Shown: positions 38,247-41,352, counted from the stretch's first letter. The stretch: 61,174 nt of DNA from an uncultured Thermoanaerobaculia bacterium (GCA_964512045.1 CAZEJK010000001.1:54398-115571), one strand, 5' to 3'. Numbers and translations are program-made. Notes: a model not told the origin generated them from the sequence alone.

Positions 38247-39026
38247 ATGCGGGTGCTGACCCAGAACCTATTTCTGCTCCGAGAGTTCACTCGGCGCGAC
38301 TTCAAGGGGCGCTACGCCGGATCGATGTTCGGGCTGCTGTGGTCGTTCGTGCAGCCGCTGTGGGAGCTCGCCCTGTTCACATTCATCTTCTCCACGGTGC
38401 TCAAGATCTCTCCACTGGGGGAGCGCACCGACAACTTCGCCGTGTTCCTCTTCTGTGGTCTGCTCCCGTGGACCGCGGTGCATCAGGGGGTGTTCCGAGC
38501 GTCGACCGCCATCACCGACAACGCGAACCTCGTCAAGAAGGTCAGCTTCCCGTCGGAGCTGCTGGTGTTCTCGGTGGTGGGAGCAGCGATCCTGCACGAG
38601 GCGATCGCCATGACGCTGTTTCTCATCGTCCTGGCTCTGCTCGGGAGCCTGTCGTTCAGCGGGCTGTGGCTCCTTCTCCTGGCACTGCCCCTCCAGCTGG
38701 CATTGACTGTAGGCCTGGGCCTGATGCTCGGCGCGGTCAACGTCTTCTTCCGCGATATCTCCCAGCTGCTATCGATGCTCCTCATGGGGTGGTTTTACGT
38801 CACACCGATCGTCTATCCGCTCGGCCTGCTGCCGGAGCACCTGCGGGGGATCATCGAGCTGAATCCGCTCGCCACCCTGGTGCTTCTCTACCGTGAGGCG
38901 TTGCTCGGAGGGTCCACGATCCCTGTCGTCGACACTGTACGCCTGCTGGTGATCGCTCTGGGAGCGCTCGCGGCGGGTCTCTGGCTGTTCCGCCGGCTCA
39001 AGCCGGCCTTTGTGGATGAGCTGTGA
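38247..39026 (+). CDS. wzm: ABC-2 type polysaccharide export permease (Wzm/TagG-like)
   Basis: LREFTRRDFKGRYAGSMFGLLWSFVQPLWELALFTFIFS is the typical ABC-2 N-terminal block. Six TM spans. 259 aa. Confidence 0.88.
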   Translation: MRVLTQNLFLLREFTRRDFKGRYAGSMFGLLWSFVQPLWELALFTFIFSTVLKISPLGERTDNFAVFLFCGLLPWTAVHQGVFRASTAITDNANLVKKVSFPSELLVFSVVGAAILHEAIAMTLFLIVLALLGSLSFSGLWLLLLALPLQLALTVGLGLMLGAVNVFFRDISQLLSMLLMGWFYVTPIVYPLGLLPEHLRGIIELNPLATLVLLYREALLGGSTIPVVDTVRLLVIALGALAAGLWLFRRLKPAFVDEL

Positions 39027-40261
39027 TGACGGCGCCGTGCATCTCGGTGTCCGGCCTGAGCAAGAGCTATCGGGTCTACGCGCGGCCGCTCGACCGGTTG
39101 CTGGAGCAGCTCTTGCGGCAGAAGCGGCACACGGAGTTCCACGCGCTGCGCGGCGTCACGTTCGAGATGTCGGCAGGAGAAGGTCTCGGCATCGTCGGTG
39201 AGAACGGCGCCGGCAAGAGCACGCTGCTCAAGATCCTGGCCGGGGTGACGGTGCAGACCCGGGGCGAGATGGCCGTGCGTGGACAGGTGGCGTCGATCCT
39301 CGAGCTGGGATCGGCGTTCCATCCCGAGTTCACCGGCCGGCAGAACATCGTGCTCAACGCCGCCATGCTCGGGCTCAGCCGCGAGGCAGTGTCCCGACGG
39401 ACACCGGATATCGTCGCATTCTCCGAGCTCGGGAGCTTCATCGACCAGCCGTTGAAGTGCTACTCCACCGGCATGGTGATGCGCCTGGCGTTCGCCATTG
39501 CCACCCAGGTCGATCCGGATGTGCTGATCGTCGACGAGGCGTTGTCCGTGGGAGACGGCTACTTCCAACGCAAGTGCATGCGCCGCCTGCAGGAGTTCGT
39601 GGAAGGCGGCGGCTCGATCCTGTTCTGCTCGCACGCGATGTACTACGTCTCCGCGTTCTGTCAGCGTGCACTGTGGCTGCGCAACGGCGAGGTCGAGGCC
39701 CTCGGTCCGACGGACGAGGTCGTGCGCGCCTATGAGGCGTTCCTGCTGGCGAAGTCGGGCAACGGCACGACAGCGGAGCCGTCGAGCTCGGGTCTGGCGA
39801 GAATCGACGAGGTCGTCGTGTCGCGCGGTGATCTCTATCGATGTGGTGATCGGTGGGAGCTCGAGGTGGCCTGGGAGACGGAGGATGCAGGTCTGTCGTT
39901 CCATCTCGGTATCGGGATCAACCGTGTGGACGGCGTCGAGGTGTGCGCCTTCCTCTCCCACCGCGACGGCCTCGAGCCGTGGAGCGGGGCGACGTCGCAC
40001 CGCGCGAGGGTCGTGGTTCCCCGGCTGCCTCTGGTGAAAGGGACGTTTACCCTGTATGTCTATCTGGTCGGGGATGACGGCCTCCACGTCCACGACCTGA
40101 AAGTTGTTGAACGCGCGTTCTCCGTGGAAAGTCAGGAGTACCAGTTCGGTCTCGTTGATACGCCCCACCAGTGGCAGCGACTGGAGCACGGAGCCCGCGA
40201 GATTCCCGAGGGCAGCGATCGGGCAGCGGATCGTCCTCGGGTGCGTGAGGAGAGTCGATGA
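39026..40261 (+). CDS. wzt: Polysaccharide ABC exporter ATP-binding protein with a C-terminal Wzt-type extension
   Basis: Walker A GENGAGKSTLLK, signature YSTGMVMRLAFA, Walker B LIVDEAL. A beta-rich tail of about 160 aa follows. The start is in a TGATG overlap with wzm (GTG 39023 is also possible). Confidence 0.88.
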   Translation: MTAPCISVSGLSKSYRVYARPLDRLLEQLLRQKRHTEFHALRGVTFEMSAGEGLGIVGENGAGKSTLLKILAGVTVQTRGEMAVRGQVASILELGSAFHPEFTGRQNIVLNAAMLGLSREAVSRRTPDIVAFSELGSFIDQPLKCYSTGMVMRLAFAIATQVDPDVLIVDEALSVGDGYFQRKCMRRLQEFVEGGGSILFCSHAMYYVSAFCQRALWLRNGEVEALGPTDEVVRAYEAFLLAKSGNGTTAEPSSSGLARIDEVVVSRGDLYRCGDRWELEVAWETEDAGLSFHLGIGINRVDGVEVCAFLSHRDGLEPWSGATSHRARVVVPRLPLVKGTFTLYVYLVGDDGLHVHDLKVVERAFSVESQEYQFGLVDTPHQWQRLEHGAREIPEGSDRAADRPRVREESR

Positions 40262-41352
40262 GTGTTCCCAGTACCGCCACCGAGTGGCGACCGAGCCCGT
40301 TCCTGCATGTGAGCCCTGAGCGGCTGTACAACCCGTTGACCGATGCGTACCTCGACGCCACCGAGCACGGCTTCGGCGTGCTGATGGAGCTTCTCGATGC
40401 CGGTCACAGCGTGAGCCCGGCAGAGCTGAGCCCCACCTTCGGCGCCTTGATCGAGCAGGGGTGGCTGGTGCCGGCCGATGAGGACCTGTCGTACCGGTGG
40501 CGGCTGAAGTACGTCTCCCTGGAGGCGCACACCACGTGCAACCATCGCTGCTACTTCTGCCCGGTGTCGGTGGTGCAGCGGCCCAAGGCGTCCATGCCGA
40601 CCGAGATGTACGAGCGCGTGGTGCGCGAGATCGCCGATCTCGGCGAGCCGATCGAAGCGGTGGTCATGATCAGCTACAACGAGCCCACCCTCGACCCCCG
40701 GTTTGTGGAGCAAGTCCGCTGCATCAAGGAGGCAGGTCTTCCGCCGGCGACCCTGAGCAACGGCTCGGGACTGACTCCGAAGGTCACCGATGCGCTCGTC
40801 GAGCTCGGAGGGCTGAGCTACCTGTCGATCAACCTGTCGACGATCGACCGGGAGCGCTACCGTCGTGACCGCGGTCGCGACCACCTTCCGACGGTGTTGA
40901 CCAACGTGGACTACGCCAAGGACAAGCCGGTGGCGGACCAGATGGAGATCGTGGTGCTCGGCACGGGAGATGCGGAGCACACCGAGAACGTGCGCGCCAT
41001 CCGTGAGTACTTCGCCGGGAGCCGGTTCGTGGTCAAGGACTTCGTGGCGAATGATCGGGCGGGGTACCTGGAAATCGGCATGAAGGCGCCGGATGACGGC
41101 ACCACGTTGTGCGGCTGTGACTACATGGGCTCGCGGCCGATTCAGCATCTGCACATTACCGCCCGCGGACGGTGCATCCTCTGCTGTCAGGACTACCACG
41201 AGGAGTGGGAGGTGGGGGACCTGACGACCCAGTCAGTGCGTGAGGTGCTGGACAGCCCCGAGCTCGCCAGGGCCCGTCGTTGGGTGTACGGCCTCGAGGA
41301 GCCGCCGGAGCGGTTCTTGTGCCACGGGTGCCCGTACGCTCTGCGAAGGTAA
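40258..41352 (+). CDS. Radical SAM / SPASM-like protein with an N-terminal extension of about 90 aa
   Basis: ATGA overlap with the wzt stop. Cx3Cx2C cluster CNHRCYFC at about aa 92-99. C-terminal auxiliary Cys cluster CGCDY...CILCC...CHGC. Confidence 0.85.
   Translation: MSVPSTATEWRPSPFLHVSPERLYNPLTDAYLDATEHGFGVLMELLDAGHSVSPAELSPTFGALIEQGWLVPADEDLSYRWRLKYVSLEAHTTCNHRCYFCPVSVVQRPKASMPTEMYERVVREIADLGEPIEAVVMISYNEPTLDPRFVEQVRCIKEAGLPPATLSNGSGLTPKVTDALVELGGLSYLSINLSTIDRERYRRDRGRDHLPTVLTNVDYAKDKPVADQMEIVVLGTGDAEHTENVRAIREYFAGSRFVVKDFVANDRAGYLEIGMKAPDDGTTLCGCDYMGSRPIQHLHITARGRCILCCQDYHEEWEVGDLTTQSVREVLDSPELARARRWVYGLEEPPERFLCHGCPYALRR

Follow-up and report, generated by a model that had tools for sequence, protein, structure and literature searches.

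Organization of the wzm-wzt-radical-SAM locus

The stretch of DNA analyzed here (the window) comprises 61,174 nucleotides from an uncultured Thermoanaerobaculia bacterium (GCA_964512045.1, CAZEJK010000001.1:54398-115571) and has a G+C content of about 66%. At positions 38,247 to 41,352 it carries wzm and wzt, encoding the permease and the ATPase of a glycan exporter of the ATP-binding cassette (ABC) type, followed by a gene for a radical S-adenosylmethionine (radical-SAM) enzyme. The enzyme combines an N-terminal domain resembling the recognition elements (RREs) found in pathways for ribosomally synthesized peptides with post-translational modifications (RiPPs) with a radical-SAM core and a C-terminal auxiliary-cluster domain of the twitch type. 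We consider it fairly probable that it is a sugar-modifying enzyme of glycan biosynthesis with a co-opted RRE fold.

An earlier note, made from the sequence of the window, had described the three genes as one coupled unit, and the raw sequence bears out its coordinates and both overlaps: the wzm stop and the wzt start share TGATG at 39024-39028 (ctgTGATGacg), and the wzt stop and the radical-SAM start share ATGA at 40258-40261 (cgATGAgt). An alternative GTG start of wzt lies at 39023. Short overlaps of this kind are ordinary for operons and unremarkable alone; the arrangement and both overlaps are identical in an orthologous locus of 85% identity (L168). The N-terminal segment and the C-terminal cysteines quoted in the note are all present, and the flanking genes for glycosyltransferases of families 4 and 2 (GT4, GT2), for a methyltransferase on the minus strand and for a GNAT-like protein are as it described. 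The motif CNHRCYFC, placed by it at about residue 92, is there as well, with its first cysteine at residue 94. The plus-strand gene string was called from codon-position GC content and Pfam, and the features of the region are listed in Table 1.

Table 1. Features of the radical-SAM locus and its surroundings, with positions in the window
Feature	Position	Strand	Evidence
wzm, ABC-2 permease of glycan exporter	38247-39026	+	Pfam ABC2_membrane, E 1.5e-16, 61 bits
wzt, ABC ATPase with C-terminal extension, residues ~255-378	39026-40261	+	ABC_tran, 70 bits; Wzt_C weak
Radical-SAM/twitch enzyme, 364 aa	40258-41352	+	Pfam Radical_SAM and SPASM above cutoff
Predicted N-terminal RRE-like winged-helix domain, residues 1-82	40258-40503	+	AlphaFold2 model, Foldseek
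CxxxCxxC radical-SAM motif, C94/C98/C101	40537-40560	+	100% conserved in 107 members
Predicted C-terminal twitch-type auxiliary-cluster domain, residues 285-364	41110-41349	+	Cysteine conservation; BtrN alignment
GT4 glycosyltransferase	41394-42452	+	Pfam Glyco_trans_1_4, E 1.3e-20
SAM-dependent methyltransferase, ~190-aa N-terminal extension	42439-43611	-	Pfam Methyltransf_23, E 1.7e-23
GT2 glycosyltransferase	43646-44749	+	Pfam Glycos_transf_2
GNAT-like protein (Acetyltransf_9)	44801-45775	+	Pfam, E 7e-7
Secreted 508-aa protein, "unk518"	27291-28817	+	Signal peptide in translation; no family match in Pfam/NCBIfam
Giant BACON/PKD-repeat surface protein	29260-34734	+	Pfam BACON, PKD, BACON_2
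YfhO-like polytopic membrane protein, candidate GT-C transferase	34958-37261	+	Weak Pfam YfhO, E 2e-5
Secreted 278-aa protein, unknown family	37258-38094	+	No match in Pfam/NCBIfam

Radical-SAM core and auxiliary-cluster domain

The core of the enzyme is recognized by the Pfam model Radical_SAM (PF04055; residues 92-227, 66.9 bits against a cutoff of 29.5) and its C-terminal part by SPASM (residues 293-359, 35.7 bits against a cutoff of 21.5). In the Pfam and NCBIfam scans, no NCBIfam family came near its cutoff for the query (best 59 bits) or for 10 distant relatives; the model N_Twi_rSAM gave a partial C-terminal match (E 9e-6). Public records name the family generically, for example as "radical SAM/SPASM domain-containing protein".

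Cysteine conservation was tabulated over 107 members of the family, the most distant of which are about 27% identical. The three cysteines of the motif beginning at Cys94 (C94, C98 and C101) are conserved in all of them, and the family accordingly belongs to the radical-SAM superfamily. The C-terminal region of the query contains C285, C287, C306, C309, C310, C355 and C358, of which C287, C309, C355 and C358 are conserved in 95-96% of the members, C310 in 79% (and without exception among 26 orthologues), C306 in 34% and C285 in 6%. The query spacing CxC...CxxCC...CxxC does not fit the SPASM pattern CX9-15GX4C...CX2CX5CX3C...C. Because one auxiliary-cluster site of four cysteines is conserved across the family, the C-terminal domain is assigned from its sequence as a putative twitch domain with one auxiliary cluster, not as a seven-cysteine SPASM domain with two; the SPASM label of the earlier note was therefore overstated.

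A profile built from the 26 orthologues was searched against all PDB sequences, and the best match was BtrN (E 5e-14). The alignment extends over the radical-SAM core as well as the twitch domain, and the auxiliary cysteines are in register to within one residue. Further matches were the peptide epimerase YydG/EpeE (E 4.5e-5), PqqE (0.028), BlsE (0.06) and DesII (0.43). With BtrN as the closest solved relative by sequence, the premise that enzymes of this class normally mature peptides, from which the earlier note had started, is weakened. The note had also named membership of the orthologues in a characterized sugar-modifying family as an outcome that would speak against it; BtrN is indeed the nearest such enzyme, but it is no orthologue, as the glycan operon context, an identity of about 16% in the structural alignment and the extra N-terminal domain indicate, and no curated family covers the protein. 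Among the distant relatives, only the one in locus L085 adjoins a BtrH_N gene.

The full-length AlphaFold2 (AF2) model has a predicted local distance difference test score (pLDDT) of 82 and a predicted template modelling score (pTM) of 0.83. Its structural matches comprise SuiB, SkfB, BtrN (TM-score normalized to BtrN 0.65-0.67), DesII, BlsE and the anaerobic sulfatase-maturating enzyme (anSME). A role as anSME, prompted by sulfatase genes in two related loci (L001 and L002), was considered and rejected: there is no anSME profile match, the model TIGR03942 not being among the 25 best NCBIfam matches of the query; the enzyme has one auxiliary site; and sulfatases are not conserved partners.

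N-terminal RRE-like domain

Nearly every full-length relative conserves the N-terminal ~82 residues, and most of the distant relatives likewise carry an N-terminal extension, of 80-120 residues. P14, H17, P26, L64 and W69 do not vary across the 26 orthologues, and for D29 and G68 conservation is at least 90%; the motifs of the domain are PFLH, YNPxTD and GWL. Modelled alone by AF2 from a 50-sequence alignment (pLDDT 86), the domain is predicted to contain strands at residues 10-12, 22-25 and 30-33, helices at 39-48, ~54-56 (short) and 59-66, and a last strand at 70-72.

When this model was compared with the PDB by Foldseek, the first 14 matches were all RRE-bearing RiPP enzymes (TMq 0.39-0.60), with TigE, MadB, ThcOx, TbtB, MibB, TbiB1, NisB and McbB represented; individually, these matches are non-significant (E 0.29-3.3, the best having E 0.29 and a probability of 0.84). 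A viral structure library searched as a contrast returned incoherent matches with TMq of at most 0.39, none of them meaningful for this domain. The N-terminal sequence profile placed TigE second in the PDB, at a weak E of 0.34 and in register over TigE residues 5-92; the TigE RRE has been defined as residues 3-85 (PMC10878394). Pfam PqqD (PF05402) matched neither the window domain nor 49 relatives, even at E up to 10. The PqqD/RRE-like N-terminus proposed in the earlier note is thus supported in its predicted fold and, weakly, by the alignment with TigE, whereas homology to PqqD is not demonstrated over these 50 sequences. We conclude, at the level of the predicted fold, that the domain is probably of the RRE-type winged-helix class and is positioned as in RiPP radical-SAM maturases.

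The domain is absent from the GT4-GT2-radical-SAM fusion P0164 and from the radical-SAM protein of locus L170. As a separate observation, the hairpin motif YNPxT(D/G)R (residues ~22-33) matches the Pfam "2-cysteine adaptor" family (2C_adapt, PF08793) in 3 of 50 members (best E 2e-4) and in the fusion P0131; this adaptor occurs in giant-virus proteins.

Wzm/Wzt transporter

The best NCBIfam match of wzm is the galactan Wzm/RfbD permease, below that model's cutoff. The nucleotide-binding domain of Wzt finds its best PDB match in the Aquifex O-antigen Wzt (6amx, E 1.6e-67), and its PDB sequence matches at E 1e-67 to 1e-51 include TarH, TagH and the M. tuberculosis galactan exporter RfbE. The pair has the composition of a Wzm/Wzt exporter, namely an ABC-2 permease and a nucleotide-binding protein of the Wzt/TagH type.

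The C-terminal extension of Wzt spans about 170 residues and is weakly matched by Pfam Wzt_C (PF14524; E 1e-3, 19.5 bits against a cutoff of 30.4); the PDB search by sequence matched it to no solved structure. Across ~55 aligned orthologous loci this domain is conserved, with the last 10-25 residues variable, and a sequence-level check of Wzt in L001, L002, L004 and L168 gave lengths of ~410-420 residues, so the extension is present there too. The Wzt C-terminal tail was considered as a conserved ligand of the RRE-like domain; the tail itself is variable and only the domain preceding it is conserved, which neither supports nor excludes this idea.

Conservation of the genomic context

A word-indexed search returned 1591 homologues, of which the top 120 are full length and 54-85% identical to the query, and cluster representatives numbered 6252 at E up to 1e-3 and 89 with the limit set at 1e-30. 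The representative species genomes that contain relatives number at least 366. Of the best 80, nearly all carry the label Acidobacteriota (Thermoanaerobaculia, Holophagales), and a few the label "bacterium" only.

Among loci with enough flanking sequence, wzt lies directly upstream of the radical-SAM gene, on the same strand, in 51 of the 75 from genomes and 25 of the 43 from metagenomes. The gap between the two genes ranges from about -4 to 90 nt. Within 3.5 kb downstream, a GT4 or GT2 gene is found in 63 of 66 genome loci and 38 of 46 metagenome loci. Where at least 4 kb are available on both sides, wzt or wzm is present anywhere in the locus in 38 of 46 genome loci and 16 of 17 metagenome loci. 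Within a set of 84 related loci, orthologues of the window GT4 and GT2 were detected in 70 and 49, respectively, and an adjacent wzm in only 7, so that adjacency of wzt to the radical-SAM gene is more conserved than adjacency of wzm to wzt. Lowering the search stringency revealed no hidden wzm in L001 or L002. Of the linkages described in the earlier note, those to wzt and glycosyltransferases recur in many species. In Acidobacteriota loci lacking an adjacent wzm, wzt directly follows the gene for the giant PKD protein or a gene of the unk518 family.

Alternative orders were observed as well, with wzm directly upstream of the radical-SAM gene in L162 and L167 and wzt downstream of it in L141 and L157. 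Such varied arrangements point to functional linkage and not to inherited gene order alone; together with the synteny and with the fusions described below, they led us to reject chance adjacency of the radical-SAM gene and the exporter.

A methyltransferase gene recurs beside the radical-SAM gene both in Acidobacteriota and in Halioglobus, and the two enzymes are fused in P0124 and P0131; P0229 is a fusion with an FkbM methyltransferase. Fusions to glycosyltransferases are represented by P0164 (GT4-GT2-radical-SAM) and P0137 (GT2-radical-SAM). The 629-residue P0137 retains the RRE-like domain and the twitch cysteines and has lost CxxxCxxC, which may mark it as a pseudo-radical-SAM scaffold or else reflect an artefact of sequencing.

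Sugar-related genes also accompany the family outside its main lineage. In L113, from a lineage with 50% GC, genes for a 2-oxoglutarate (2OG)-dependent oxygenase, the radical-SAM enzyme, GT4 and GT2 adjoin RmlB/RmlC/RmlA, followed by a GT2 and a methyltransferase gene. In the gammaproteobacterium Halioglobus maricola (L169; radical-SAM protein WP_152660523.1), the order is GNAT, PIG-L-GT2 fusion, radical-SAM, GT4, GT2 and methyltransferase; the GNAT gene, a homologue of the GNAT-like gene of the window, lies one gene upstream of the radical-SAM gene, which is flanked by the PIG-L-GT2 fusion. L170 has a GNAT-like gene directly upstream (judged by eye from shared motifs), then the radical-SAM gene, a GT4-methyltransferase fusion and PIG-L.

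Three relatives of ~30% identity were examined, and two of them lie in sugar or small-molecule clusters, the context of the third being uninformative. One of the two clusters (L086) contains GT2, methyltransferase and sulfotransferase genes; the other (L085) contains BtrH_N, carrier-protein, B12-radical-SAM, GT9 and carbamoyltransferase genes. The latter, which surrounds the distant homologue P0271, has two paralogous twitch radical-SAM genes with RRE-like N-termini and, besides the B12-radical-SAM gene, one more of the superfamily; its carrier proteins number two, DUF6625 is also present, and from its gene content it looks like an uncharacterized sugar-based natural-product pathway.

Search for a precursor peptide

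Open reading frames (ORFs) of 20-120 codons lying outside long ORFs with high GC at the third codon position were clustered across the 84 loci and the window, on the basis of crude gene calling. No conserved precursor ORF was found in this set, in agreement with the earlier note, which had seen none nearby; the recurrent families were antisense shadow ORFs with a high content of Arg, Ser and Pro, and the cut-off ends of unk518-like genes. Between wzt, the radical-SAM gene and the glycosyltransferase genes, the packing is too tight for a precursor. At the loci scanned, the radical-SAM gene is thus not accompanied by a precursor gene in the manner of RiPP clusters.

Neighbouring genes

Downstream of the radical-SAM gene, GT4 probably starts at a GTG 42 nt past the radical-SAM stop, as read directly from the sequence context; its longest ORF runs from 41280. 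The protein shows weak similarity to BshA, MshA and GlcNAc-PG synthase, all far below cutoff. In L168, GT4 was called as a 183-aa fragment only, followed by a gene of the 23S_rRNA_IVP family (116 aa) (11633-13006), which suggests that it was disrupted by an insertion.

Upstream, the ATG of the gene for the 278-aa protein overlaps the stop of the YfhO-like gene (ATGA). This gene fills an apparent gap upstream of wzm, leaving 153 bp before wzm, and its product is conserved in L168. The related loci L001 and L002 contain YfhO or PMT_2 genes, and a giant PKD protein is encoded upstream of wzt in L001, L002 and L168. By tblastn, unk518 homologues were found in 20 of the 84 related loci, often beside wzt, and BACON/PKD proteins in 3. 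Members of the unk518 family are secreted proteins of ~445-520 residues encoded upstream of the giant PKD protein and wzt, with up to three tandem copies in L001 (1-3652); the cluster may serve them if they are surface or glycosylated proteins, as seems possible.

Further along the window, 48529-50085 encodes a 518-aa protein whose C-terminal half is YqeB, of selenium-dependent molybdenum-cofactor biosynthesis (TIGR03309, 229 bits against a cutoff of 220), its N-terminal half having no assignment, and 52543-61172 encodes a CDP-alcohol phosphatidyltransferase, an MMPL-family transporter, a LonB/LonC-like protease and SecA, the last running off the end of the window.

Possible function of the radical-SAM enzyme

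We place the enzyme in glycan biosynthesis because its nearest characterized relative is a sugar dehydrogenase; because it has a single auxiliary-cluster site; because glycosyltransferases, a methyltransferase and GNAT accompany it constantly, as does Wzt in Acidobacteriota; and because it is fused to partner enzymes and accompanied by sugar-nucleotide and de-N-acetylase genes. Of the two options of the earlier note, a glycan-modifying enzyme with a co-opted RRE fold is accordingly favoured over an exported (glyco)peptide. The anatomy of the protein, its cysteine conservation, its relatives, synteny and fusions, and the absence of precursor ORFs at the loci scanned are observations; the substrate, the reaction and the role of the N-terminal domain are inferred. 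As a cytoplasmic enzyme related to BtrN, it would most likely modify a sugar of the glycan that the adjacent GT4 and GT2 build, or an activated precursor of that sugar, and the modification would precede export of the lipid-linked product by Wzm/Wzt. The 5'-deoxyadenosyl radical would presumably abstract a hydrogen atom from a sugar C-H bond. The substrate radical could then be oxidized via the auxiliary [4Fe-4S] cluster to yield a keto-sugar, as in BtrN, or a cysteine thiol on the opposite face could quench it, so that an epimer results, as in HygY and NeoN; for the second route, the orthologue-invariant Cys310, beside the ligand Cys309, is a candidate hydrogen donor. Since the similarity to BtrN is at the level of the superfamily, the reaction may be a dehydrogenation, an epimerization or other chemistry.

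The simplest reading of the RRE-like domain is that of a docking module which has been co-opted, given that the motifs on its predicted surface are near-invariant across species and that the domain is missing from P0164 and L170; its loss from P0164, where the glycosyltransferases are part of the same chain, fits such a role. What it docks would probably be not a RiPP leader but a conserved stretch of peptide in an acceptor or in one of the partner proteins, which are Wzt, the glycosyltransferases and the methyltransferase. More speculatively, the product of the radical-SAM reaction might contribute to a terminal signal read by the C-terminal domain of Wzt, an idea suggested by the tighter adjacency of wzt to the radical-SAM gene than to wzm. 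The combined proposal, in which the RRE-fold domain binds a peptide segment of Wzt, of a glycosyltransferase or of a protein or peptide acceptor and the enzyme installs a mark for the Wzt C-terminal domain to read ahead of export, we regard as tentative and rather unlikely. The part concerning an export signal is speculative because the Wzt_C assignment is weak and Halioglobus has no nearby wzt.

Several points weigh against assigning the enzyme to sugar modification in a Wzm/Wzt pathway. Its similarity to BtrN is at superfamily level, with ~16% identity in the structural alignment, and the family is uncharacterized. An adjacent wzm is absent from most related loci, and in Halioglobus (L169) there is no wzt within 9 kb of the radical-SAM gene. 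The full-length Foldseek search is topped by the RiPP maturases SuiB and SkfB, which probably owe their rank to the shared N-terminal RRE. To our knowledge, all experimentally studied RREs bind a peptide, and for this reason a real peptide or protein substrate is kept under consideration.

Such a substrate could be the leader of a precursor encoded elsewhere, bound by the RRE-like domain; the radical-SAM domain would cross-link or epimerize that peptide, which would then be glycosylated by GT4 and GT2 and leave the cell through the ABC-2 transporter. The predicted fold of the N-terminal domain, whose best PDB matches are all RiPP enzymes, agrees with a RiPP or glycopeptide maturase of this kind, as do the lead of SuiB and SkfB in the full-length fold search and the second rank of the peptide epimerase YydG/EpeE among the PDB sequence relatives; the YydG/EpeE operon also contains an ABC-2 transporter. 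This explanation is nevertheless improbable in our view. The scan of the 84 loci gave no conserved small ORF, and the gaps between the wzt, radical-SAM and glycosyltransferase genes are about -4 to 90 nt; the exporter ATPase is of bona fide Wzt/TagH type; the sequence is much nearer to that of BtrN than to those of RiPP maturases; related clusters contain Rml sugar-nucleotide genes and PIG-L; and a member fused to glycosyltransferases dispenses with the RRE-like domain. The N-terminal surface is moreover highly conserved across species, which would not be expected of a domain that serves diverse leaders. Alternatively, the enzyme could modify a co-located secreted protein (unk518, the 278-aa protein or the giant PKD/BACON protein) before its secretion, with the RRE-like domain gripping an N-terminal segment, in the manner of anSME acting on sulfatases or QhpD on QhpC. 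The recurrence of unk518-family genes, sometimes in tandem, and of giant PKD proteins upstream of wzt and the radical-SAM gene in Thermoanaerobaculia loci is in keeping with this, and so are the sulfatase-family genes in L001 and L002 and the peptide binding of RRE folds. Yet the secreted proteins are absent from the smallest or more remote forms of the module, in L004, L113, L169 and L170, all four of which have the glycosyltransferases; unk518 and BACON/PKD proteins are confined to the minority of loci given above; and the anSME model lies outside the 25 best NCBIfam matches, of which the best reaches 59 bits. We give a protein-maturing role little credence.

A third possibility is that the enzyme acts on a lipid anchor or aglycone of the glycolipid made by the module and not on a sugar. 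Lipid-related genes are indeed found nearby in places, such as FA_hydroxylase and 2OG-oxygenase genes in L001, KAS III in Halioglobus (L169) and, in the window, the genes for the CDP-alcohol phosphatidyltransferase and the MMPL transporter at a distance of 7 kb downstream, and the similarity of the window GT4 to the glycolipid or thiol GlcNAc-transferases BshA, MshA and GlcNAc-PG synthase, weak and far below cutoff, is compatible with it. However, lipid genes are not conserved partners, the consistent ones being glycosyltransferases, the methyltransferase and Wzt, and BtrN, the nearest characterized relative, acts on a carbohydrate-like cyclitol, so a lipid or other non-sugar substrate also appears quite unlikely.

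Implications

A literature search linking radical-SAM enzymes to Wzt or O-antigen, BtrN to polysaccharide and RREs to glycans retrieved no description of this arrangement, its matches being unrelated Xanthomonas and Campylobacter genes. The parts united in the locus are known ones, namely a radical-SAM core of the twitch type, an RRE-type fold and a glycan pathway with Wzm/Wzt; their combination is previously undescribed. Acidobacteriota are abundant and poorly studied soil bacteria, and the wiring of the family to Wzt, GT4, GT2 and the methyltransferase implies an unrecognized modification of envelope sugars in them and in some Proteobacteria. An RRE-like fold without a precursor peptide raises the question of other ligands for the fold and means that genome mining which uses the RRE as a RiPP beacon could give false positives. 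Should the tentative signalling proposal hold, a radical-SAM enzyme would be making the signal for export or termination in a glycan pathway that depends on an ABC transporter, and this would be the first RRE to serve the assembly of a polysaccharide machine instead of RiPP leader recognition. The findings are relevant to specialists in radical-SAM enzymes, RiPPs and bacterial glycans; Halioglobus maricola, which is cultured and has a complete genome, makes the family experimentally tractable.

Comparison with known systems

BtrN, the 2-deoxy-scyllo-inosamine dehydrogenase of butirosin biosynthesis (PDB 4M7T/4M7S), shares with the window enzyme a single auxiliary-cluster site, and its own substrate is of carbohydrate type. 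It differs in having only ~250 residues and no N-terminal domain and in acting on a free aminocyclitol in an antibiotic pathway, whereas the window family has the additional conserved Cys310, the hallmark motifs YNEPT, DRAG and CCQDY, and a place in operons for glycan assembly and export. The carbohydrate epimerases HygY and NeoN are twitch radical-SAM enzymes that act on sugar C-H bonds and in which a cysteine returns the hydrogen atom. By this description, the spare C310 beside the cluster ligand is reminiscent of them; their substrates are aminoglycosides and, as far as we know, they lack an RRE-like domain.

The RRE-bearing RiPP maturases TigE (8VPO), SuiB (5V1T), SkfB (6EFN) and CteB have the order of winged-helix RRE, radical-SAM core and C-terminal Fe-S domain that is predicted for the window enzyme, and the TigE RRE is both the top fold match and the second sequence match of the N-terminal domain in the window. 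SkfB is also of the twitch type. These maturases have an adjacent precursor gene, peptide substrates and mostly a seven-cysteine SPASM domain with two auxiliary clusters, in contrast to the window enzyme, which has one auxiliary site, no precursor in the loci scanned, and Wzt, GT4, GT2 and methyltransferase genes as neighbours.

The cluster as a whole resembles ABC-transporter-dependent O-polysaccharide pathways with chain terminators, such as the E. coli O9a system with WbdD and Wzt-CBM, in which an ABC-2 permease and a Wzt with a C-terminal extension are likewise found together with GT4, GT2 and a methyltransferase. Known ABC-dependent O-antigen systems have methyl-phosphate or Kdo caps, to which the speculative terminal signal would be a parallel, and we know of no characterized Wzm/Wzt polysaccharide pathway that includes a radical-SAM enzyme. 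The window cluster differs from pathways of the O9a type in that its Wzt_C match lies below the Pfam cutoff, in that wzt adjoins the radical-SAM gene more consistently than it adjoins wzm, and in the addition of the radical-SAM enzyme itself.

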